Shown one piece after another: positions 8,423 to 29,902 of a stretch of DNA of 31,453 nucleotides (position 1 is its first letter; each line of letters begins with the position of its first letter). The translations under genes and the position numbers were made by a program. Source of the DNA: Candidatus Tectimicrobiota bacterium (lineage in GTDB: Bacteria; JACPUC01); contig JACPUC010000030.1 of the NCBI GenBank assembly GCA_016192455.1, positions 124,001 to 155,453 of the forward strand, written 5' to 3'. The notes beneath the pieces are model-generated. The model did not search any database. It saw only the letters and a program-made list of their open reading frames with translations, and was not told the DNA's origin.

Positions 8423-8622
8423 TATCTTTCTTGCAGAGAGGGGCAAGAGGGACGAAGCGTCGCCACGGGCGCGGCGCGCTCCTTCCTGAAGGGCGATCGG
8501 GCTTGCCCCGCCGCGGCTGGCGAGTCGGTCGGCGCCTTCTCGCAGCTCCGAGAAGGGTGCGGCGCTCAATCCTGGTCGTGAGCCGGGCCCCAAAGTAAGT
8601 TGTGCCGTCACTGGAGGAAAGC

Positions 8623-9069
8623 ATGAAGAGGTTCATCTTCGAGCAGCGCGTGCGGTGGGAGGATTGCGATCCCGGCGGGTTGATCTTCTATGGCAACTAC
8701 TTCCGCTACTTCGAGGCCGCGGAGGAGGAGCTGCTGCGCTCCACCGGCACCTCCGAATGGGAGATGAAGCAGAAGTACAACATCGCTCTCGGCAAGACCG
8801 ACGTGGGCATCCAGTTCTTCGCCCCGGCCCTTTACGATGACCTGATCGAGGTTCAGACGTGGATCCCGGAATACGACGATAAGCGCTACCTCATGCGCTT
8901 CGAGGTCTACAAGCAGGGCACCGAGACGCTCCTCTGCAAAGCCCATGCGAAGGTAATCTGCATGCAGAAGGGCGGCGAGCGCCTGCGCGCCCGCGAGCAT
9001 CCGCCCGAGTTGCTCGAGATCCTGGAGACCTACGCTGAAGAGGGCGCCCGGAAGGAGAAGATCCGCTGA
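8623..9069 (+). CDS. Acyl-CoA thioesterase, 4HBT/YbgC hotdog family
   Basis: 'RVRWEDCDPGGLIFYGNYFRYFEAA', 'FFAPALYDDLIEV'; GGAGG SD before ATG 8623. Confidence 0.9.
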   Translation: MKRFIFEQRVRWEDCDPGGLIFYGNYFRYFEAAEEELLRSTGTSEWEMKQKYNIALGKTDVGIQFFAPALYDDLIEVQTWIPEYDDKRYLMRFEVYKQGTETLLCKAHAKVICMQKGGERLRAREHPPELLEILETYAEEGARKEKIR

Positions 9070-9322
9070 GGAGGGGGCTCGCCTGGCGCAGGCGCGGGGC
9101 GCGCCCGGCGTTACCATGCAGGGACGAACACAACACAGCCCGGCGCGGGGCGCTTGCGCGGGACAAGGAGTGATGCCCGGCAGCAAGCCCCGGGGATCGC
9201 CTTCCAGCGCCCCCAGGCGGTGTCTTCGGCGGTGAATGGTTTGTCCGCAGCGCGTTTTCCGCCGTAGTCGGAGCTGTTGTCAGGCCGCACCGGAGCGGCA
9301 GAAGAAAAAGCGTCGGCTCCGC

Positions 9323-9352
9323 TTGACAGGTGCGGGGCTTTATTCCTATTAT
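9323..9352 (+). promoter_or_regulatory. Putative sigma70 promoter of the small-peptide unit
   Basis: TTGACA-N18-TATTAT in an AT-rich patch. Confidence 0.6.
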
Positions 9353-9409
9353 TCTTGTAGGTTACGTTCTTCGTAGTCGGCCGAGTTCTTCAGCATGGAG
9401 GGCTCAAGC

Positions 9410-9475
9410 ATGGTGTGGAGGATGACCGCCTTGGAGCGTTGCGCCGTTCTGGGGGTCTTCAAATTTCCACGCTGA
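9410..9475 (+). CDS. Small peptide 1 (21 aa, MVWRMTALERCAVLGVFKFPR), unknown function
   Basis: GGAGGG SD at 9397-9402; same length and C-terminal motif as peptide 2; an in-frame ATG at 9395 is an alternative start. Confidence 0.55.
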   Translation: MVWRMTALERCAVLGVFKFPR

Positions 9476-9683
9476 TCCCTGGCTGGGGGAGGTCTTGCCA
9501 GCCAGGGGTTGCGGCAGTGAGCGGTTCGCAGTCAGGGCATGCTCCCGTGGGAGAGCATGGGGCGTCAAGCGGAGATGACGCCGATCCCTGCTGAGGCTTC
9601 CGAGGCGTCGCCCAGATCGTTGCATCGGGAGCGTGGACTGGGCGGCGGGAAGATTCGGGTTCCTCTCTCTCGAGGAGGCGCCT

Positions 9684-9749
9684 ATGAGGCTGATCCATAT
9701 CAAGGCCACCCTGCGAGCGCTGACGGGGAACTTCAAGTATCCGTACTAA
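9684..9749 (+). CDS. Small peptide 2 (21 aa, MRLIHIKATLRALTGNFKYPY), unknown function
   Basis: Strong GAGGAGG SD at 9672-9678; shares A-x-x-G-x-F-K-[FY]-P-x-stop with peptide 1, with synonymous third-position differences. Confidence 0.65.
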   Translation: MRLIHIKATLRALTGNFKYPY

Positions 9750-9855
9750 TCCCTGGCCGCAAGGTTGCGCGCGGGCCAGGGTCACCCAAGCCAGCGAGAT
9801 CAGAGCACCCGAAGCCGCGAGCTTCGGATAAGGATGGATCCCGAAAAGGGGTCAC

Positions 9856-9881
9856 GGCGCCGCGCAAGCGGCGCCTTTTTT
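9856..9881 (+). terminator. Rho-independent terminator
   Basis: Perfect stem GGCGCCGC-GCAA-GCGGCGCC followed by TTTTTT. Confidence 0.88.
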
Positions 9882-9908
9882 GCTTTGCGGCGGCCCCCAT
9901 ACTATAAA
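9880..9908 (+). promoter_or_regulatory. Possible sigma70 promoter for rnr
   Basis: TTGCTT-N17-TATAAA overlapping the terminator T-tract. Confidence 0.35.
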
Positions 9909-9987
9909 AGGTACGCTGCGCTTTGCCTCCTCCTTGCGCTACACTCCCACAGGTCACCCTTACCTCGCTGGTCAAAGCTTCCGATCC

Positions 9988-12279
9988 ATGATGGTTTCAG
10001 AAGACGAGATCCTCGATTTCCTGCGCCGCATGGCGCCGCGCGCCGTGCCGGCGAAGGAGCTTTACCGCGCCTTGGGCGTGCAGCCTGACGAACGGCGGAG
10101 CCTCAAACGCCTGCTGCGCGAGCTCGCCGCCAACGGCCAGGTCGCCCGCCTGAAGGGGGCGCGCTTTGCCCTCGCGAACAGCTTGCGGGGCGGCAGGCTG
10201 CGGGGCGTCTTCCGCAGCCACCCCAAGGGCTTCGGGTTCGTCACCCCGCACGACCGCGGCATGGAGGACCTCTACATCGCCGCCGCGGCCACCGGCGGCG
10301 CGCTGCATGGCGACGAGGTGGAGGTGCGGCTGCACGCGGCGGGGTTGGGGTCGCGGCGCGCCGGCGAGGTGACCCGGGTGGTCCAGCGCGGCCAGCGCGA
10401 GATCATCGGGCAGCTCCTCAAGGTGCAGCGCCATGCTCTGCTCGTGCCGGTCGACCGGCGCCTGACGGTCGATATCGTCATCCCCTGGAAGGAGCGCAAC
10501 GGCGCCGAGCACGGCCAGATGGTGCTGGCGGAGGTGACCGAGTACCCGACGGCGCGCCGCCCCATGCGCGCCCGCGTGCTGAAGCTGCTCGGCGATCCGG
10601 ACGACCACGAGGTCCTCGCCCAGATCATCCTGCACGAGCACGGCGTCACGCAGGAGTTTCCCCGCGCCGTCGTGGAGGCCGCGGCCGCCTGCCCCGAGCG
10701 CATCCCCGCCTCCGAGCCGGCCCGCCGCCGCGACCTGCGCCCCTGGCCGTGCGTCACCATCGACGGTGAGACCGCCCGCGACTTCGATGACGCCGTCTCC
10801 GTCCGCCGCCTGGAAGGGGGCGGCTTCGAGCTCGGCGTGCACATCGCCGACGTGAGCTGGTACGTCGAGGAAGGCTCCCCGCTGGACCTCGAGGCCTACG
10901 ACCGCGGCACCAGCATCTACCTCCCGGAGCGCGCCATCCCGATGCTCCCCGAGCGCCTCTCCACCCATCTCTGCAGCCTGCGCCCCGACGCCGACCGCCT
11001 CACCCTCAGCGCCATCATGCGCTTTGACGCCGACGGCGCGCCGCAGGAGGCAGAGCTCTGCGAGTCGGTCATTCGCAGCCGGGCGCGCTTGACCTACACG
11101 GCCATCCAGCAGCTCTTCGCGCGTTTGGATGCGGAGCGGGCCGCCGACGGAGGCGCGGCCAAATCCAAGGTTGCCGCGCGAAGCGCCCGCGCCGCCTCCG
11201 CCGACGAGCCGCCCGCGGAGCTGCACGACGACCTCCTGACCATGCGCGAACTCGCCCACTTGCTGCGGGCACGGCGCATGCGCGCCGGCAGCCTCGACTT
11301 CGACCTGCCGGAGCCGGACTTCATTCTCGATGAGAGCGGCAGCATCGTGCACATCGAGGAGCTGGCGGCGGACGAGGCGCACCACCTCATCGAGGAGTTC
11401 ATGCTGGCGGCCAACCGCACGGTGGCCCGGCAGCTCCGCGCCCGCAAGATCCCCCTGCCGTACCGCATCCACGAGCCGCCGCCGCCCAACAAGGTCGCCC
11501 TGCTGGGCGACGTCATGACGCGCTTCGGACACCGCTTCGAGGTGGATCCCCAGGCGCCGAACCAGAAGGAGCTGCAGGCCCTCCTCGATGCCGTGCGCGA
11601 CACGCCGGAGGCGCGCATCCTGCACACGCTGGTGCTGCGCACCATGAAGCAGGCGCGCTACGACACCTTCAACGTCGGCCACTTCGGGCTTGCCTTCGAC
11701 CTCTACACCCACTTCACCTCGCCGATCCGCCGCTACCCCGATCTGCTCGTGCACCGCCACCTGCGCCGCTTCTTCTTCCAGGGCGAGCCGGTGCCGGAGG
11801 AGAGCCTCTGGCACGAGCGCCTGGCGGCGGCCGCGCGCACCGCCTCCGAGCGCGAGCGCCGCGCCGACCGCGTCGAAAACGCCGTCAACGACCTGAAAAC
11901 CGCCGCCTATATGGCCAACCACCTGGGCGAGGAGTACGAAGGGTTCATTACCGACTTGGTGAGCTTTGGCTTCTTCGTCGAGCTCACCACGCTCTTCGTG
12001 CACGGCCTCGTGCACCTCGCCACCCTGCGCGACGACCACTACCTCCTCGACGAGGAGACGTTCTCCTTGGTCGGAGTGCGCACGGGGCGCGTCTTCCACC
12101 TCGGAGACCGGGTGCGCATCAGGGTGCGCCAGGCGGACCTGCTGCGACGCCGCATTGACTTCGAGCTCCTGGCGGTGCTCGAGCAGCGCCGCTGGACGAG
12201 CCACCCCGGCCGCCAGCGGCACGCGGCCCGGCAGAGTTGGCGAGGCGAACGGCGAGGCGGCGGCAGCCGGCGCCCGTGA
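9988..12279 (+). CDS. rnr: Ribonuclease R
   Basis: N-terminal HTH; CSD 'HPKGFGFV…ALHGDEV'; RNB motifs 'VTIDGETARDFDDA', 'LIEEFMLAAN', 'YTHFTSPIRRYPDL'; C-terminal S1 and basic tail; start ATG 9988 or 9991 uncertain. Confidence 0.96.
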   Translation: MMVSEDEILDFLRRMAPRAVPAKELYRALGVQPDERRSLKRLLRELAANGQVARLKGARFALANSLRGGRLRGVFRSHPKGFGFVTPHDRGMEDLYIAAAATGGALHGDEVEVRLHAAGLGSRRAGEVTRVVQRGQREIIGQLLKVQRHALLVPVDRRLTVDIVIPWKERNGAEHGQMVLAEVTEYPTARRPMRARVLKLLGDPDDHEVLAQIILHEHGVTQEFPRAVVEAAAACPERIPASEPARRRDLRPWPCVTIDGETARDFDDAVSVRRLEGGGFELGVHIADVSWYVEEGSPLDLEAYDRGTSIYLPERAIPMLPERLSTHLCSLRPDADRLTLSAIMRFDADGAPQEAELCESVIRSRARLTYTAIQQLFARLDAERAADGGAAKSKVAARSARAASADEPPAELHDDLLTMRELAHLLRARRMRAGSLDFDLPEPDFILDESGSIVHIEELAADEAHHLIEEFMLAANRTVARQLRARKIPLPYRIHEPPPPNKVALLGDVMTRFGHRFEVDPQAPNQKELQALLDAVRDTPEARILHTLVLRTMKQARYDTFNVGHFGLAFDLYTHFTSPIRRYPDLLVHRHLRRFFFQGEPVPEESLWHERLAAAARTASERERRADRVENAVNDLKTAAYMANHLGEEYEGFITDLVSFGFFVELTTLFVHGLVHLATLRDDHYLLDEETFSLVGVRTGRVFHLGDRVRIRVRQADLLRRRIDFELLAVLEQRRWTSHPGRQRHAARQSWRGERRGGGSRRP

Positions 12280-21195: not shown

Positions 21196-21831
21196 TCAGC
21201 GCAGCAGGTTGGCGAAGCGTTCCCAGCGCACCAGGCGCAGCCAATCGGCGCCCCAGTTCCACGACCAGTAGATGATGAACGCCTTGCCGACGATGGCCTT
21301 GCGGTCGACCAGGCCCCAGTAGCGGCTGTCGTAGCTGTTGTCGCGGTTATCCCCCATCATGAAGTATTTGCCTGGCGGAATGGTCAGCGGCCCGAAGTTG
21401 TCGCGGCGGGAGAGGAGGCCCGGCTCAATGCTGCCGAGGTCCGCCTGCGAGTAAGGCTCGGCAAGGGGCGCGCCGTTGATGAACACCCGCTTGCGGGTCA
21501 TCGAGATGCGATCGCCCGACAGGCCGACGACGCGCTTGATGAGGTCGGTCTTGCCGTCCTGGGGCGAGACGAACACCATGATGTCGCCGCGCTTCGGCTC
21601 GGTGAACCAGTAGTAGAACTTCGCCACCAGGACGTGGTCGCCCACCAGGAGGGTGGGGATCATCGACCCGGAGGGGATGTTGAAGGCCTGCACCACGAAG
21701 GTGCGGATGAGGAGCGCCAAAAGGATGGCGACGATGAGCGCCTCGGCGTACTCTCGGAACACCGATTTGCGCCGCGGCTGGGGATCTTGCTGCGGTTGGG
21801 ATACGCTGCGCGGCTGCGGTGATTTCTTCAT
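21196..21831 (-). CDS. lepB: Signal peptidase I
   Basis: TM anchor; 'IPSGSMIPTL'; 'LIKRVVG'; 'MGDNRDNSYDSRYWG'. Confidence 0.95.
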   Translation of the reverse strand: MKKSPQPRSVSQPQQDPQPRRKSVFREYAEALIVAILLALLIRTFVVQAFNIPSGSMIPTLLVGDHVLVAKFYYWFTEPKRGDIMVFVSPQDGKTDLIKRVVGLSGDRISMTRKRVFINGAPLAEPYSQADLGSIEPGLLSRRDNFGPLTIPPGKYFMMGDNRDNSYDSRYWGLVDRKAIVGKAFIIYWSWNWGADWLRLVRWERFANLLR

Positions 21832-22063
21832 ACGCCGTCCATGACTCAGGCGGAAAATGGGAGCTGATTGCGGCGCGGCGGCGCGCGGTTCAGGGCGGCG
21901 CCCCGCGGTTCAGGCCGCCAAGCGGGGGGCGCGGGGGCTCCCCGCCTCCCTCCTGGAGGCCAAAGCTCCACCGCGGAGACACCTCGACCGATGACCCCTC
22001 GAACAAGCGCCCCGGATCATCCTGGATCATTGGGCGGTTGTCTCGGGCTCATGTCCGCCGTCG

Positions 22064-22684
22064 TTAGCGCAGCAGTTTTCCGAGCCGCCGCCAGCGCACT
22101 TTCGCCAGACCTCTTGCCTCCGCGTCCCATGACCAGTAGATGAGGAACGCTTTGCCGACCACTGCGTCGTTGCTGAGCGGCCCCCAGAAGCGGCTGTCGA
22201 GGCTGTCGTCGCGGTTGTCGCCCAACATGAAGTAGGTCCCCGCCGGCAGCGTCAACGGCCCGAAATTGTCCCGATTCGACAGGCGGCCGGGCTGCACCGT
22301 GTCACTCGAGAAGGAGACGTACTCTTCCCGCGCCGGCTGGCCATTGATAGAGATCTGCTTGTTTTTGATCTCGATGGTCTCGCCGGGCAGCCCCACGATG
22401 CGCTTGATGAAGTCGCGCTGCGGATCGAGGGGGAACTCGAAGACAATAATGTCACCCCGCCGCGGCTCGGTAAAGTAGTAGATGAATTTATTCACCAGGA
22501 GGTAGTCGCCGATGCGCAGGGTGGAGAGCATGGAGCCGGAGGGGATGGTGAACGCCTCGACCACGAAGGTGCGAATGCCGAGCGCCAAGATGACGGCCAC
22601 CACGATGGCTTCGGCATAGTGGCGGAAGGCCGACTTGGGCCGCTGCTGCGGTGGCGGCGGAGCTTGCGGGATGGCGTCAGTCAC
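22064..22684 (-). CDS. lepB: Signal peptidase I (second paralog)
   Basis: 'IPSGSMLSTL'; 'FIKRIVGLPG'; 'LGDNRDDSLDSRFWG'; GTG 22684 has an AGGAG SD (alternative start 22705). Confidence 0.95.
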   Translation of the reverse strand: MTDAIPQAPPPPQQRPKSAFRHYAEAIVVAVILALGIRTFVVEAFTIPSGSMLSTLRIGDYLLVNKFIYYFTEPRRGDIIVFEFPLDPQRDFIKRIVGLPGETIEIKNKQISINGQPAREEYVSFSSDTVQPGRLSNRDNFGPLTLPAGTYFMLGDNRDDSLDSRFWGPLSNDAVVGKAFLIYWSWDAEARGLAKVRWRRLGKLLR

Positions 22685-22701
22685 CAGTGCGGGCTCCTTC
22701 C

Positions 22702-24510
22702 TCACTTCTCGGCGTCAATGCGCAGCAAGGCCATGAAGGCCTCCTGAGGGAGCTCCACCTGGCCGACCTGCTTCATGCGTTTCTTCCCCTCTTTCTGCTT
22801 CTCGAGCAACTTCCGCTTGCGCGTGATGTCGCCGCCGTAGCACTTGGCCGTCACGTTCTTGCGCAGAGCCTTCACCGATTCCCGCGCAATGACGCGGCTG
22901 CCGATCGCCGCCTGGATGACCACTTCGAAGAGCTGCCGCGGCACGAGCTGGCGCATCTTCTCCACCAACTCCCGGCCGTAGTCATAGGCGCGGTCACGGT
23001 GCACGATGAGGGAGAGGGCGTCGACCACCTCGCCGTTCACCAGGATGTCCAGCTTCACTAGGTCGGCCTTGCGGTAGCCCAGGAGATCGTAATCGAAGCT
23101 GCCGTAGCCGCGCGTCTGCGACTTGAGCTTGTCGTAGAAGTCGAGCACGATGGAGCTGAGCGGGATTTCGAAGCTGAGCATGGCGCGGCTCTCATCGATG
23201 TACTCCATGCTCTTGTGCAGGCCGCGGCGCTCCGTGGCGAGCTTCATGATGGCGCCGATGCTGCTGGTGGGGGTGATGATCGAGGCCAGGATCACTGGCT
23301 CCTCGATGCGATCGATGAGACCGGCCGCCGGGAAGCGCGAGGGGTTCTGCACCTCGAGCGCCTCCCCGTTCGTCTTGTAGACGCGGTACACGACGGTGGG
23401 CACGGTCACCAGGAGCGTCAGGTCGAACTCGCGCTCCAGGCGTTCCTTGACGATCTCCATGTGCAGCAGGCCAAGGAAGCCGCAGCGAAAGCCGAAGCCG
23501 AGGGAGTCCGAGATCTCCGGCTCATAGCGGATGGCGCTGTCGTTCAGGCAGAGCTTCTCGAGCGCGTCGCGGAGCTGCTCGAACTGGGAGCTCTGCACCG
23601 GGTAGAGGCCGCTGAAGACCATCGGCTTCTTGTCGCGGAAGCCCGTCAGCGGGGCGGCGGCCGGACGCTGCGCATCGGTGACGGTGTCGCCGATCTTCGT
23701 ATCCTGGACGCGCTTGATGCCGGCCAGGAAGTAACCGACCTCGCCGGCCCAGAGCTCCTCGGTCTTCATGCGCCGCAGACGCAGCATGCCCACCTCGCTC
23801 ACTTCGTGGACGCTGCCGTTGCTCATCAGCTCGATGAGCTGACCCTTGCAGATGCGGCCGTTCATCACCCGCACGAGGACCACGGCGCCCTGGTAGGAAT
23901 CAAACCAGGAATCGAAGATGAGCGCCTGCAGGGGAGCGCTGGGATCGCCCTTCGGCGCCGGGATGCGTTCCACAACGGCTTCCAGCACCGCGGCGATGCC
24001 GAGCTTCTCCTTGGCGCTGGTGAGGAGCACGTCCTTGGGGTTGATGTCCAGCAGTTCGCTGAGCTGGCGTTTCACCCCTTCGATGTCGGCATTGGGGAGG
24101 TCGATCTTGTTGATGACCGGGATGATCGTCAGGTTCTGCTCCAGCGCCAGGAAGGCGTTGGCGATGGTTTGCGCCTCGATGCCCTGCGCCGCATCCACGA
24201 CCAGGAGCACCCCTTCGCAGGCCGCCAGGCTGCGCGAGACTTCGTAGCTGAAATCGACGTGTCCGGGAGTATCGATGAGGTTGAGGCGATAGAGGGTGCC
24301 GTTGGGGTGGCGGTAATCAATGCGGATCGCCTGCGCCTTGATGGTGATGCCGCGCTCGCGCTCGATGTCCATCTGGTCGAGCACCTGGTCGGTCATCTCG
24401 CGCTGGCTGATGGTCCCCGTCACTTCAAGCAGACGATCGGCCAGGGTAGATTTTCCATGGTCGATGTGGGCGATAATGGAAAAGTTGCGCACATGCTCCA
24501 GCGTATACAT
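22702..24510 (-). CDS. lepA: Translation elongation factor 4 (LepA)
   Basis: '[19 protein letters not shown]', '[11 protein letters not shown]', '[13 protein letters not shown]', '[25 protein letters not shown]'. Confidence 0.98.
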
Positions 24511-25405
24511 CGAGGGAATCCGTTTCAGACCTGACAGTGGTACGGGCAAGGCGCCAAGAGACTCACCTCACCCCTGGGGGCTCCACATCGCCTCCGCGGC
24601 CGCTCGCCGCGCTGAAGCGGCAGGGCTCCCTTCCCCGCGCGCCGCTCAGAAGCTTCGTGCCAAAAACCATGGCAAGGCAGGCAGGTCGACGATCGCCGGC
24701 GCGCCGCCACACCGCGCCACGGCCGCGGCTCTACCCTGCACGTTCAAGACAGCGCGGCGGCCGGGATGGTTCCCTCCCCTCCGCCGCGGCCCATGCGCGC
24801 GGCGCGCCGGGCGAACAACACCGCCGCCTCGCCGGGGAACGGACACTCCTCCGCACCACGAGGCTCTCACCGGCAGAGCCGCACCCGGCAGAACGGCTGT
24901 TTTCATGCGGAAAACCAGCAAGCCGGCGAAGTTGCGCTCGCGTGGGTACGCGCCTGGCGGCGAGAACAGAGGTCCCTTCGCAAGCTGGGCATGGCGCCCG
25001 AGGGCGGGTGCGCGGCGAGCGACAGACATCGGACATGCCGTGGCGCCTTCCGAGGTGAGCCCGCCGCGTCCTCCAGGCAATCTAGCAACATTTGAACTTT
25101 CAGCACGTTATGGTAATGTAACAGGACCAGGGAGAAATCGCAACGAGGAATTCGGTGTATCTCGCCCCGCTGCGGCGCGGCGCGGTCCTGACGCGCGTCG
25201 CGGCGGCGCGGAGCAGAGCGTCGGCGCCAGCAGGCGCGGCGTCGGTTCTCGCAGGGGGTCCCCGGCCAGGGCCGCGCTGTTGCTCCCCGTTGCAACCTCC
25301 CGCCGGCGTGCTTATCTTGACAGCGGAGGAGTAGTCGTCAGGTGTTGGTGAGCGTGGAGGGACGGCAGCCGCCCGCGAGTCGCTCTCCGAGAGGCGACCC
25401 GGAGG

Positions 25406-25511: not shown

Positions 25512-26072
25512 TTGGATTCCGACCAGGTTCTTGTAGACCGCAGTCAGCTAGGGGATACGAAGGCCTTCGACGTGCTGGTGCTGAAGTATCAGCAGCAGGT
25601 CTTCTCGCTCATCTATCGTCTGACGAGTGATCGCCAGGCGGTGGAGGACTTGGCGCAGGACGTCTTTCATAACGCCTATCGCGCCATCAGGCACTTCCAG
25701 GGCAAGTCAAGCTTCTTCACCTGGCTCTACCGCATCACCGTGAATACGTGCATCAACTTCACCAAGCAGCAACGCTTGCGCCGGGTGATCACCTCGGTGG
25801 AAGACAACCCCTACGGAGATGTGCCGTCGCCCAGCCACCAAGAGGTCGACAGCCCGGAGCGGGCGTTGGAGAACAAGCAGCTGGCCGGTCTCATTGAGAA
25901 GGCGCTGTCGAGCATCTCCGAGGATAAGCGGACCATCCTCATCCTGCGTGATATCGAGGGGTTGAGCTACGAGGAGATTGCGGAGATCATGGACTGCCCG
26001 ATTGGGACGGTGCGATCCCGGCTCTTCCGCGCGCGGGAGAAGATTCAGGTAAAACTGCGCGCCTACCTCTAG
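25512..26072 (+). CDS. rpoE: ECF RNA polymerase sigma factor, RpoE/AlgU-like
   Basis: 'GDTKAFDVLVLKYQ', 'EDLAQDVF', 'FFTWLYRITVN', 'EGLSYEEIAEIMDCPIGTVRSRLFRARE'; TTG start. Confidence 0.93.
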   Translation: MDSDQVLVDRSQLGDTKAFDVLVLKYQQQVFSLIYRLTSDRQAVEDLAQDVFHNAYRAIRHFQGKSSFFTWLYRITVNTCINFTKQQRLRRVITSVEDNPYGDVPSPSHQEVDSPERALENKQLAGLIEKALSSISEDKRTILILRDIEGLSYEEIAEIMDCPIGTVRSRLFRAREKIQVKLRAYL

Positions 26073-26141
26073 GCGTGTCCGTAAGGGGCGGCAGGCGTCC
26101 CAGGTGCGAGGTGAGCTCTTTCCAAGCAGAGGGAATCGTTT

Positions 26142-26765
26142 ATGCGATGTCTCGCCACGCGTGAGCAACTGTCGGCATTCATCGACAACGAGCTCGACTC
26201 TCAGGAGGTGCGCGCCCTGAACGCGCACTTGGAAGGGTGCACGAGCTGCCGGCAGGAGCTCGAGCAGTTGCGCGCGGCGCAGATGCTGCTGCGGGAAGTG
26301 GCGTTTGCCGTGCCGGCGCCCAAGCCGTCGGTCCATTTTTCCGCGCGCGTCATGCAGGCTATCGCCGAGGACGACCTGTCGCACGCGCCGCAGGCGCGCG
26401 GCCCCTTCCTGGCCGAGCCTGCGCTGGGGCGCTTCTGGGAGGCACTCCTCGAGCGCGCGCACGGCTGGCTGCGCCTGCCTCGCTACGCGCTCAGCATGGC
26501 GAGCCTGGCGCTGGCCATCGGCGTTTTGACCATGGTGGTCAGTGGTGGCGGGGTGAAGTTCGCGGCGAGCTGGTTTGGCCCGCAGCGCCCCACCCTCACC
26601 ACCGTGTACAAGCTTCCCCAGATTGCCAGCCTCAAGATGCCGCGAGAGACCGACCTCGAAGAAGCGCTGCGGGAGTTCGCCTACCACTCCTCCGGCGAGC
26701 CCACCCTGGAGGGCGGGGCATGGGTGGCCTTAGCGCAGGTTCGCTATGGGGCGGGGGCCAACTAG
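26142..26765 (+). CDS. Transmembrane anti-sigma factor with zf-HC2 (ZAS) domain
   Basis: 'C…LSAFIDNEL…HLEGCTSC' (HxxxCxxC); one TM helix; directly downstream of rpoE. Confidence 0.88.
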   Translation: MRCLATREQLSAFIDNELDSQEVRALNAHLEGCTSCRQELEQLRAAQMLLREVAFAVPAPKPSVHFSARVMQAIAEDDLSHAPQARGPFLAEPALGRFWEALLERAHGWLRLPRYALSMASLALAIGVLTMVVSGGGVKFAASWFGPQRPTLTTVYKLPQIASLKMPRETDLEEALREFAYHSSGEPTLEGGAWVALAQVRYGAGAN

Positions 26766-26838
26766 ACGGAGCTGGCGGCGCCGTTTGAGGCAGCGGCAGG
26801 GGAAGTGCGAGGCATCTGCCGCACGGTCGGGTTGAACC

Positions 26839-28044
26839 ATGATGCACGACACCTTGGCAAGCTCGGCGCTCCCGGAGAGCGCCGCGCGGCGGCAAAGTGG
26901 GAGGCTGCTGGTGCAGAACGTTCCGCATTCTCCGCCATGGGGCCGGAGGTCGCTTGCCTCCTCGCTCAGCCGGAGGCTAGCCTGGCTGCGGCGGTTGGGG
27001 AGGCGATGGGGGCTCCCAGGGCTGTGCGGCGCGCTCCTCCTCGGCAGCGCCTGGCCGGCCAGCGCGTGGGCCATCGAGGCGAAAGCCTGGCACATGCTCG
27101 AGCGCATGGCGCAGGCCGAGCTAAGCCAGGTCTACGCCGGCGAGAAAGTGGTGGCGGACCTGACGCAGCCCGTGCCGAAATTCCTCCACTTCCGTGTTAT
27201 TCGGTTGCTTCCCAACCTGGAGCGTCGAGAGTTCCTACACACCAACAACCAACCGGCCGATGTCGTCGTCAATGACGGCAACTATCTCTGGCACTATCAA
27301 CCGTTGCGCGGCCTCGTGGAGAAGCGCAAAGCACCCTCCCTGCAGCAACGTCGCACCTTGCAGCTCCGCACCCTCGATCTCATCAAGGAGAATTACGCAG
27401 TCAAGGTTCAGGCTCTCGAGCAGCCGCTGGATGGGCGCCGCGCTGATCTCCTGGAGTTCTCCAGCAAGTTGGAATCCGCCCGCCTGCTGCGGCGTGTGTG
27501 GATTGACCGTGAAACAGGCTTGGCGCTGCGGACGGAGGTGTACGGCCTCGACGCGCGGCTGACCCATCTCTCCTACTTCACCCGCATCAACTTCAGCCCC
27601 GCGGTGTACAGCGAAACCTTCGAGCTGCGGGTGCCGAACTCCACCCGCATGCGGACCGTGGAGGAGCTCTCCCTCTCCACGCTGAGAGAGATTTCGCAGG
27701 AATTCGAGCGCTCCCAGTCGGTGCGGGTGCACCGCCCCAGCTACCTGCCGCCGGGGTTTTCGATCATCCGTTCGCAAGTCCAGTCGGTGAACAGCGAGAA
27801 GAAAGTGCTGCTCAAGTTCTCGGACGGGCTCAACACCTTGCTCCTCTATCAGACCGTGTTGCCGTCGGCGCCCCGGCCCTCGAATCAGCCGAGCCGCCCC
27901 ATCGATATCGGGGGAGTGGCGGGTCACATCTTCGAGCTGGGCTACGTGCGCGCCCTGAAGTGGCACCGGGATGGCAACTATTACACCTTGGTAGGGAATC
28001 TTCCCGAAGAAGAACTCGTCCGTACCGCCGCCTCAATCCAATGA
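26839..28044 (+). CDS. rseB: MucB/RseB-family periplasmic sigma-E regulator
   Basis: Signal-like segment ending 'ASAWA'; 'RRVWIDRETGLALR'; 'PSYLPPGF'; 'FSDGLNTLLLY'; gene context; start uncertain. Confidence 0.8.
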   Translation: MMHDTLASSALPESAARRQSGRLLVQNVPHSPPWGRRSLASSLSRRLAWLRRLGRRWGLPGLCGALLLGSAWPASAWAIEAKAWHMLERMAQAELSQVYAGEKVVADLTQPVPKFLHFRVIRLLPNLERREFLHTNNQPADVVVNDGNYLWHYQPLRGLVEKRKAPSLQQRRTLQLRTLDLIKENYAVKVQALEQPLDGRRADLLEFSSKLESARLLRRVWIDRETGLALRTEVYGLDARLTHLSYFTRINFSPAVYSETFELRVPNSTRMRTVEELSLSTLREISQEFERSQSVRVHRPSYLPPGFSIIRSQVQSVNSEKKVLLKFSDGLNTLLLYQTVLPSAPRPSNQPSRPIDIGGVAGHIFELGYVRALKWHRDGNYYTLVGNLPEEELVRTAASIQ

Positions 28045-28363
28045 TCGTCAACGACGCGGCTGCAGCCGACCCTTGGCCCCTGGGGGAGGGAGGCGGGATT
28101 CTCTGCGCGGCTGAGCCGCGCGGAGCGCTCCTGGCGTAAGCGCCGCAGCCGCGCGCCGCTCGTTGCCAAGCGCCGCCGGTCGGCGCCGGTGAAGAAGGTC
28201 GCTGATCCCTGCCCCGAAGAGCCTCCCCATGCCCGGGCGTTCGAGGCGCCTGATCGGTTGGCCCAAGTGAGCGGCCGGGATAAGCGGGCGGCGCGCCTGG
28301 GCGGGCTGTCCCAGGGGCTGTACGAAGGGAGCCGGGACGCCTCCCCTGTTTCTCCTGTTCTCT

Positions 28364-29902
28364 ATGAGGGAGATCACGAACGTGGATCCCACTCTGAAGT
28401 CGATGCTTCATGCCCGCTGGCGTCGCAGCCGGCGTGCGCCCATCCGGACCTTCGTGGTGCTCCTGCTGGGGCTGTTCGCTCTCGCCCTCCCCCTGGTGAG
28501 TGGCGTGGGTGACAGCCAGGCCGGCGCTTCCAATGAGCCGCTCAGCAGGCGCTGGGTGGCGGACATCGTCAAGTCCCAGCGCCAGGCTGTCGTTGGGATC
28601 ACCACGCAGCGCCGAGCCAGCCAGAGCCAGCGGCAGTTCCGCGGCCCCTTCCATCGCAACCCGTCGCTGCGCGAATTCTTCGAGCGCTTCTTCGAGGAGA
28701 TGCCTCGCTCGCCTCGCGACCAGCGCGGCCTCGGCTCGGGTTTCATCATCTCGCGGGACGGATTTGTCATCACCAACAACCATGTCATCGACGAGGCGGA
28801 CGAGATTGTCTTGACGATGCACGATGACTCCGAGCAGACCGCTAAGGTCGTCGGCCGCGACCCGGCAACCGACCTTGCCCTCGTGAAGTTCGAGCCCAAG
28901 GCGGGCATGGAGCTCACCGTGGCGAAGCTCGGCAACTCCGACGACATGGAGATCGGCGATTGGGTGGTGGCGATCGGCAGTCCCTTCGGGCTCTTCGGCA
29001 CCGTGACCGTCGGTGTGGTGAGCGCCAAGGGGCGGAATATCGGCGGCGGCCGCTATGCCGACTTCATCCAGACCGACGCGCCGATCAACCCCGGCAACAG
29101 CGGGGGGCCGCTGCTCAACGTCAACGGGGAGGTCATCGGCATCAACACGATGATCATCCCCGGGGGCCAGGGCAATCCCTTCGGCGGCATGCCTGGGAAT
29201 ATCGGCATCGGCTTCGCCGTCCCCATCAACCAGGCCAAGAGCATCCTCGAGGACCTGCGCGAGAAGGGCAAGGTGACGCGCGGCTGGCTTGGGGTGTACA
29301 TCCAGAAGGTGACGCCGGAGCTGGCGGGGGAGTTCAAGCTCGAGAAGCCGCGCGGCGCCCTGGTGGCGGATGTCATGCAAGGTGGACCCGCCGAGAAGGC
29401 CGGCATCAAGAAAGGCGATATCATCACCGACTTCAACGGCAAGAAGATTGAAGAGATGGAAGAGCTGCCGCGCTTCGTGGCGCAAACGAAACCGGGGACA
29501 AAGGTGGCCCTGAAGTACATCCGCGACAGCAAGCCCCAGGAGGCGAACCTCGAGGTTGGCAAGCTCGAGGAGGACGTGGTTGCCGGACGCGCCGCGCCGG
29601 CCTTGAGCGAGCGGCTGGGGATGAACGTGCAGGACATCACCAGCGACATCGCGGAGAGCCTGGGGCTGAAGGAGACCCAGGGAATCCTCGTTGCCGATGT
29701 GGAGAGCGGCGGGGCCGGAGAAAAAGCCGGCATGCGCCGTGGCGATGTGATCCTCGAAGTGAACCGCAAGAGCATCAAGAGCGTGCGCGACTTCGAGGCG
29801 GAGCTGAACGCGGCGAAGGGGAAGGAGAGCGTGCTCATGCTCGTGAAACGGGGCGATAGCACGCGCTTTGTGGCCGTGAAACAGGGCAAGGAGAAGGGCT
29901 AG
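28364..29902 (+). CDS. degP: Do/DegQ-family (DegP/MucD-like) serine endoprotease with two PDZ domains
   Basis: 'GLGSGFII', 'TNNHVI', 'DLALVK', 'IQTDAPINPGNSGGPL'; two PDZ domains; start may be 28403. Confidence 0.94.
   Translation: MREITNVDPTLKSMLHARWRRSRRAPIRTFVVLLLGLFALALPLVSGVGDSQAGASNEPLSRRWVADIVKSQRQAVVGITTQRRASQSQRQFRGPFHRNPSLREFFERFFEEMPRSPRDQRGLGSGFIISRDGFVITNNHVIDEADEIVLTMHDDSEQTAKVVGRDPATDLALVKFEPKAGMELTVAKLGNSDDMEIGDWVVAIGSPFGLFGTVTVGVVSAKGRNIGGGRYADFIQTDAPINPGNSGGPLLNVNGEVIGINTMIIPGGQGNPFGGMPGNIGIGFAVPINQAKSILEDLREKGKVTRGWLGVYIQKVTPELAGEFKLEKPRGALVADVMQGGPAEKAGIKKGDIITDFNGKKIEEMEELPRFVAQTKPGTKVALKYIRDSKPQEANLEVGKLEEDVVAGRAAPALSERLGMNVQDITSDIAESLGLKETQGILVADVESGGAGEKAGMRRGDVILEVNRKSIKSVRDFEAELNAAKGKESVLMLVKRGDSTRFVAVKQGKEKG

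Follow-up and report, generated by a model that had tools for sequence, protein, structure and literature searches.

The region described here lies in the genome of an uncultured groundwater bacterium (4.46 Mb, 88%-complete), within a stretch of 31,453 nt that was analysed as a whole and is referred to below as the window. All coordinates are window positions, and the RNA unit and rnr both read on the plus strand. A 918-nt gap between a 4HBT-type thioesterase gene (8602–9069) and rnr (9988–12279) houses the whole unit. The rnr gene encodes RNase R, with RNB (1.2e-110), CSD2, OB_RNB and S1 matches, and starts 107 nt beyond the terminator of the RNA unit in the same direction; we describe it as context, and membership of the unit is not implied. 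Its ATG at 9988 is not preceded by a Shine–Dalgarno site. A candidate weak promoter for rnr (TTGCTT-17-TATAAA, 9880–9908) was noticed by eye; it overlaps the T-tract of the terminator and scores below the threshold of our promoter scan, and one natural variant (X7, see below) has an extra A after 9905, inside this candidate region.

The unit opens with a sigma-70-type promoter, TTGACA-N18-TATTAT (9323–9352), that matches 11 of the 12 consensus positions. A scan of 8900–10100 returned this one site, compared with a mean of 0.0 in 50 shuffles, and no further promoter with at least 9/12 matches. Genome-wide, 49 sites reach at least 11/12 on both strands of the 4.46 Mb. Since 35 of these 49 fall in the intergenic-like 22% of the genome, and one precedes a tRNA-Ala gene by about 40 nt, the organism appears to use the sigma-70 consensus, and the promoter at 9323–9352 is among the best matches to it in this genome. 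The promoter scan at the tmRNA gene yielded no calibration. At the other end of the unit, an intrinsic terminator (9856–9881) consists of an 8-bp all-GC stem (9856–9875) with a 4-nt loop, followed by T6. A preliminary description of this DNA had named both the promoter and a strong terminator, and both are located where it put them, the promoter clearly exceeding chance. From the two signals we infer a transcript of about 523 nt (9359–9881), highly structured, with its start at about 9359–9360. An 18-nt inverted repeat (89% complementary) connects 9310–9327, which overlaps the −35 box, with 9564–9581 in a hairpin of the transcript; by a rough hand estimate it is marginally beyond chance.

The predicted transcript contains two small ORFs, which together make up only 25% of its length. 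ORF1 (9410–9475) encodes MVWRMTALERCAVLGVFKFPR in 21 codons followed by TGA, and ORF2 (9684–9749) encodes MRLIHIKATLRALTGNFKYPY in 21 codons followed by TAA. Both are preceded by a GGAGG Shine–Dalgarno sequence, at 9397–9401 for ORF1 (8 nt before the ATG) and at 9674–9678 for ORF2 (5 nt before the ATG, with a CU-rich stretch at 9661–9669 in front of it), so the coordinates and initiation signals of the preliminary description are correct. For comparison, GGAGG occurs 4–10 nt ahead of 37 out of 2833 random ATGs in this genome (1.3%), and a correctly spaced GGAGG is found at 13.9% of the first ATGs of 2197 long ORFs. The two ORFs are offset by exactly 274 nt, both from start to start and from stop to stop.

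The two peptides resemble each other, with a local alignment score of 28 versus 13.2 ± 3.2 in 5000 shuffles (p = 0.002). The likeness is limited to residues 12–20, where the gap-free identities listed earlier (A12, G15, F17, K18, F/Y19, P20) were all recovered; the N-terminal halves are unrelated (p = 0.92). At the nucleotide level, the first 41 nt of ORF1 and ORF2 agree at 13 of 41 positions by hand count, which is the level expected by chance. The 274-nt register has thus been kept though the N-terminal halves have diverged, and the start signals look maintained rather than inherited. The common start and stop register of the two ORFs, each with its own initiation signals, is hard to obtain by chance. 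In a pattern search across all six frames of the 4.46-Mb genome, FK[FY]Px-stop occurred twice, at these two ORFs. Neither peptide has an amphipathic-helix signal, the hydrophobic moment being no higher than in shuffles.

To score codon usage, we trained a codon model on 1710 long ORFs, used 3335 small ORFs as the null set and scored the transcript in 462 windows. With 0.755 per codon, compared with means of 0.645 for true coding windows and −0.34 for null small ORFs, ORF2 ranks among the highest 0.4% of the null set. The best of the 462 transcript windows begins exactly at the ATG of ORF2, and the codon usage of ORF2 is typical of genes. ORF1, at 0.129 per codon, ranks among the highest 11% of null ORFs and the lowest 6% of coding windows, and is ambiguous by this measure. 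Conventional protein genes on either strand were considered and rejected: the long ORFs across the region have scores between −0.28 and −0.47, and every one of them crosses position 9670, a site of insertions and deletions between strains.

The likeness of the two ORFs is part of a larger repeat. A 33-nt direct repeat (9451–9483 and 9725–9757, 76% identical) extends into a 66-nt module, and the two copies of this module form a gap-free alignment with 38 invariant columns. Each copy starts with the last seven codons of the ORF (G-x-F-K-F/Y-P-x) and continues through the stop codon into a hairpin, the 5′ arm of which begins at the stop. Module 1 spans 9445–9510 (core arms 9477–9486 and 9498–9507; 80.5 bits) and module 2 spans 9719–9784 (arms 9751–9758 and 9774–9781; 81.8 bits). 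The hairpin arms CCCUGGC/GCCAGGG are identical in both copies, and at two predicted pairs (columns 6/25 and 40/56) the copies differ by compensating changes, U-A versus C-G. A covariance model built on the module recovers the two copies in this genome and one additional match at E = 4.

Identity between the copies runs 9 nt past the stops and into both hairpin arms, and RNA-level selection could alone explain the repeat. From G15 to the stop, ORF1 and ORF2 differ at eight nucleotides. Two of the differences are synonymous third-position changes, one exchanges one stop codon for another, and five change a residue; sorted by codon position, two are at position 1, three at position 2, two at position 3 and one in the stop. 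The preliminary description had taken the synonymous differences as a sign of selection on the peptide. The synonymous and stop-to-stop changes do exist, but five of the eight differences are residue changing and the identity crosses the stops. Because third positions are not favoured and identity continues beyond the stops, the differences alone do not show peptide-level selection.

The whole transcript folds with a minimum free energy of −246.1 kcal/mol (z = −2.75 versus shuffles). Apart from the module hairpins, the predicted fold includes a 10-bp hairpin at 9383–9405 (−12.6 kcal/mol), in which the GGAGG of ORF1 pairs with an upstream U/C-rich stretch, and a central structured domain at 9533–9658 (z = −2.69), in which hairpins 9538–9559 and 9561–9582 are enclosed by CAGGG/CCCUG and followed by a long hairpin with a variable tip. 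Two further hairpins (9809–9827 and 9837–9853; 9809–9853 in all) precede the terminator, and the 3′ part has a z-score of −4.10. The Shine–Dalgarno sites of both ORFs are base-paired in predicted folds, that of ORF1 at five of five positions in all folds computed with or without masked footprints. The motif ATCCC occurs four times (9475, 9584, 9749 and 9838) compared with 0.56 expected (p = 0.002), and each occurrence forms one arm of a stem.

In folds of the whole transcript (9358–9882) without a mask, module hairpin 1 forms (10/10) and hairpin 2 does not (0/8); with a ribosome footprint masked at the ORF1 stop, hairpin 1 is lost (0/10) and hairpin 2 forms (8/8). The module hairpins look mutually exclusive in these folds, which may be an artefact of long-range minimum-energy pairs.

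Natural variants of the unit were found in sequencing runs. The stretch is present in 11 listed runs from 7 studies; four of these runs are possible sources of the assembly, and none is on record as RNA. Four runs were compared at a likeness of at least 80%, and the variation seen represents strains about 94–97% identical to the reference. Run X8 contains one 455-nt contig that covers 9384–9837 with 21 substitutions and one base inserted after 9670 (95% identical), and run X5 contains the same variant over 9516–9710. In this variant both reading frames, starts, stops and Shine–Dalgarno sites are intact, the single indel is outside the ORFs, 14 of the 21 substitutions fall between the two ORFs, and neither 33-nt repeat core has changed. 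A contig from run X7 (9395–10035) has 41 differences and two gaps. On the 13 of these 41 differences that were available in detail, X7 retains the frames, starts, stops and Shine–Dalgarno sites, and it has a synonymous change at 9713 (L10), a change at 9680 between the ORF2 Shine–Dalgarno site and the ATG, and a deletion at 9670.

Among the variant changes seen, ORF1 has a single one, the synonymous GAG to GAA at 9436. The X8/X5 variant of ORF2 has two amino acid changes, H5Y (9696) and L10V (9711). The changes seen within the ORFs amount to two synonymous (9436 and 9713) versus two non-synonymous (9696 and 9711), numbers too small for dN/dS. When the 21 substitutions are placed on a fold derived from the reference only, nine are unpaired, four keep a pair and eight break one (p = 0.07–0.13), at best a weak sign that the predicted structure is conserved, and no compensating double change between strains is found among the 21. 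The changes at 9436, 9567, 9601 and 9786 avoid paired positions or keep pairs in local hairpins. The joint fold (alifold) of the window and the variant is fitted to both sequences and was left out as a structure test.

One of the variant contigs also bears on expression. The library of run X8 is recorded as METATRANSCRIPTOMIC but flagged as 'RNA? (probably DNA)'. Its 455-nt contig, wholly inside the unit, has a word depth of 57.8. A uniform depth of 57.8 over 4.46 Mb would need about 258 million letters, compared with the 72 million letters of the run, and the stretch is thus over-represented, as an abundant RNA would be. The contig hints at abundant RNA, being one contig from a library whose RNA status is doubtful; contigs carry no information on the strand, ends or level of an RNA. 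X8 gives no cover of the stretch outside 9384–9837, an observation to which we give no weight as evidence.

To identify relatives, we compared the unit with known RNA families and with other genomes. Across the whole window, covariance models of Rfam 15 give no match at gathering score. When E values up to 10 are admitted, the interval 9070–9990 has five matches, all on the terminator region (9816–9894), the best being LPR69 with 22.4 bits against a cut-off of 40. The preliminary description would have been refuted by a match to an Rfam noncoding RNA; none was found, and its view of a discrete transcription unit, bounded by promoter and terminator and outside all known RNA families, holds.

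Individual housekeeping and regulatory RNAs were checked and rejected. The genes rnr, smpB and ssrA often cluster. ARAGORN finds no tmRNA gene in the window, and the tmRNA of this genome is on contig C7 (182.3 bits); about 6.5 kb downstream of this gene, the tmRNA model matches a second time, below its cut-off of 47 (C7:283079–283252, 40.3 bits). The RNase P RNA of the genome is on C31, away from the unit. The 6S model (RF00013) has no match anywhere in the 88%-complete genome, in a search whose control finds 6S RNA in only 5 of 14 known genomes; the unit also does not fit 6S RNA in size and shape. A CsrB/RsmZ-type sponge is not indicated, despite a csrA gene on contig C3, since GGA motifs are not enriched (15 versus 13.4 ± 2.7 in 500 shuffles; AGGA, 3 versus 3.1).

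In the genome collection searched, the phylum is represented by this genome alone, and the lineage is not known to have close relatives that are cultured or sequenced. A DNA search of 40 other genomes gave no match (1/41, this genome itself), and the module covariance model matched none of 150 other genomes. The closest relative of the RNase R is 67% identical and is encoded on a 3767-bp ENA contig; all others are at most 46% identical, and those among genome contigs reach at most about 42% (80 loci). A search of 89 loci by nhmmer with the RNA returned one match at E = 6.2, and the pattern [FYW][KR][FYW]Px-stop does not occur on the plus strand of 80 rnr loci from other phyla (697 kb). A metagenome scan with TTYAARTWYCCNNNNTRRTCCCTGG yielded nine stretches, all unrelated and most of them TGG-containing coding DNA. 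A loose motif search of the genome with two mismatches gave hundreds of chance matches, none of them useful.

Our preferred reading, which we hold with moderate confidence, is a stand-alone structured RNA of about 520 nt that contains two translated, paralogous 21-codon ORFs. A structured RNA that carries two translated ORFs would be a small-peptide or dual-function RNA. The near-consensus promoter would fire, and the strong terminator would end the RNA before rnr. Because both Shine–Dalgarno sites are paired in the folded RNA, translation is probably conditional. A ribosome reaching either stop codon would have to open the adjoining hairpin, and the conserved C-terminal heptapeptide would then be either the active end of a peptide after its release or a segment that acts within the ribosome during termination. 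Sequence and statistics establish the signals, the module and the gene-like codon usage of ORF2, whereas the transcript ends, translation, the opening of the hairpin and any function of the peptides are inferred. The peptide reading of the preliminary description is thus partly supported, and action by the peptides after release and action in cis by the unit of ribosome, stop and hairpin are both possible. Of the functions put forward there, an arrest or sensor peptide and a small regulatory protein are possible.

If the ORFs are translated, they would constitute a new family, either of very small proteins or of nascent peptides with a regulatory role, encoded on a structured RNA in which one conserved unit joins codons, stop codon and hairpin. 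If they are not, the locus would encode a noncoding RNA of about 0.5 kb that is new and probably abundant. In either case, the unit has been missed by standard annotation.

Well-known dual-function RNAs include Staphylococcus aureus RNAIII (hld), SgrS/SgrT, AzuCR/AzuC and Spot 42/SpfP, and RNAIII is about 0.5 kb long. The unit resembles them in being an RNA with its own promoter and terminator, present here as predicted signals, in its many hairpins and in its very small coding part. It differs in having two paralogous ORFs instead of one and a conserved unit that includes both stop codon and hairpin, and it has no sequence or Rfam relation to these RNAs; its translation and any base-pairing are putative.

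Tandem small peptides are also known from the PSM-alpha operon of staphylococci. As in PSM-alpha, the peptides have about 21 residues, lack signal sequences, have their own ribosome-binding sites and are encoded on one short, strongly expressed transcript (predicted here). In contrast to PSM-alpha, 208 nt of structured RNA lie between the ORFs and no exporter gene is nearby. Amphipathic PSM-like peptides were rejected as a candidate, since the peptides found here, unlike PSM-alpha, lack the helix signal and have hydrophobic moments no higher than in shuffles.

A possible, though less probable, alternative is a structured small RNA that is noncoding throughout and assembled from repeated hairpin modules, working for instance as a regulator that binds proteins or base-pairs with other RNAs; the ORFs would then be incidental. 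The gap-free 66-nt module that crosses the stop codon, with its two compensating pair changes between copies, would be expected of such an RNA. The same can be said of folding that is better than in shuffles overall, in the 3′ part and in the centre (z = −2.75, −4.10 and −2.69), and of the fourfold ATCCC (0.56 expected), which is always found at a stem. Variant changes tend to avoid or keep pairs (9436, 9567, 9601 and 9786), the codon score of ORF1 is weak, and the high-depth contig of X8 fits an abundant stable RNA. However, two well-spaced GGAGG–ATG pairs with in-register stops 21 codons on are unlikely without translation, and ORF2 has gene-like codon usage in a best window that starts exactly at its ATG. 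The conservation test also gives this alternative little help, with nine substitutions unpaired, four pairs kept and eight broken (p = 0.07–0.13) and no compensating double change between strains; the unit matches no Rfam family, and GGA is not enriched (15 versus 13.4 expected).

We consider it unlikely that the unit is a cis-acting leader of rnr, in which translation or arrest of two leader peptides at their stops would control read-through of the terminator. The order of promoter, small ORFs, intrinsic terminator and a co-directional gene 107 nt later would suit such a leader, as would the failure to find another promoter of at least 9/12 in 8900–10100. By analogy, the conserved C-terminus, the Pro next to the last codon and the hairpin at the stop may reflect the logic of arrest peptides. 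Very short regulatory leader or arrest peptides include TnaC, SpeFL and pheL/trpL, and the mgtCBR leader has two ORFs. The ORFs described here share with them their very short length, a conserved C-terminus and stop context, a Pro near the stop, and a terminator and gene downstream. TnaC-type arrest peptides have a conserved W12, D16 and P24, with the Pro as last codon before the stop, and lie upstream of tnaA. Here, by contrast, the Pro is at position 20 of 21 and thus second-to-last, there is no Trp/Asp pair at matching spacing, and the downstream gene is rnr. Unlike the trpL/pheL-type attenuators, the unit has no run of regulatory codons and no predicted antiterminator alternative, and in contrast to known leader peptides in general, its ORFs are paralogs 274 nt apart with a terminator 107 nt beyond ORF2.

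The predicted folds do not favour the attenuation of rnr either. The terminator keeps eight of eight pairs in all four full-length folds and in both folds of the 3′ part, whether the RNA is free or footprint-masked at either or both stops, and no antiterminator appears in any fold in silico. Read-through into rnr, as proposed in the preliminary description, is without support because the terminator is fully formed in every masked fold. Between the ORF2 stop and the terminator lie 107 nt with three hairpins, and rnr may have a weak promoter of its own (TTGCTT-17-TATAAA, 9880–9908). The Phe/Tyr-sensing leaders suggested there fare no better, as each ORF contains two or three aromatic codons (two Phe in ORF1; one Phe and two Tyr in ORF2) and no run of them. 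No leader-peptide attenuation of RNase R is described in the titles and abstract openings of the literature matches listed. With the terminator intact in all folds and so few aromatic codons, classical attenuation of rnr is unsupported in silico, and the layout still permits some leader role for rnr.

A more specific version of action in cis, which we put forward as speculative and rather improbable, would make the two modules paralogous termination-coupled sensors. The nascent G-x-F-K-F/Y-P-x would slow release at the stop codon, and the paused ribosome would hold the hairpin open. An abundant regulatory RNA encoded beside RNase R would thereby be switched in its fold, stability or processing. 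If true, this would represent a new class of arrest peptide.

Least probable are precursors of modified or secreted peptides (RiPPs, or pheromones derived from the C-terminal heptapeptide), for which the conserved seven or so C-terminal residues, free N-termini, tandem paralogs, strong promoter and hairpin after each ORF may speak by analogy, but Pfam scans (27 translations, 24 likely genes, spanning 82–31316) found no radical-SAM, YcaO, lanthipeptide, peptidase-exporter or Rgg-type receptor gene among the 24 likely genes of the 31-kb window, hence no maturase for the RiPP precursors suggested earlier, and the genome contains no further copies.

Elsewhere in the window (21196–24549 and 25512–29902), two tandem signal peptidase I genes adjoin lepA, and behind them comes a cluster whose products are an ECF sigma factor with a zf-HC2 anti-sigma factor, an RseB-like protein and a protease of the DegP-like kind.
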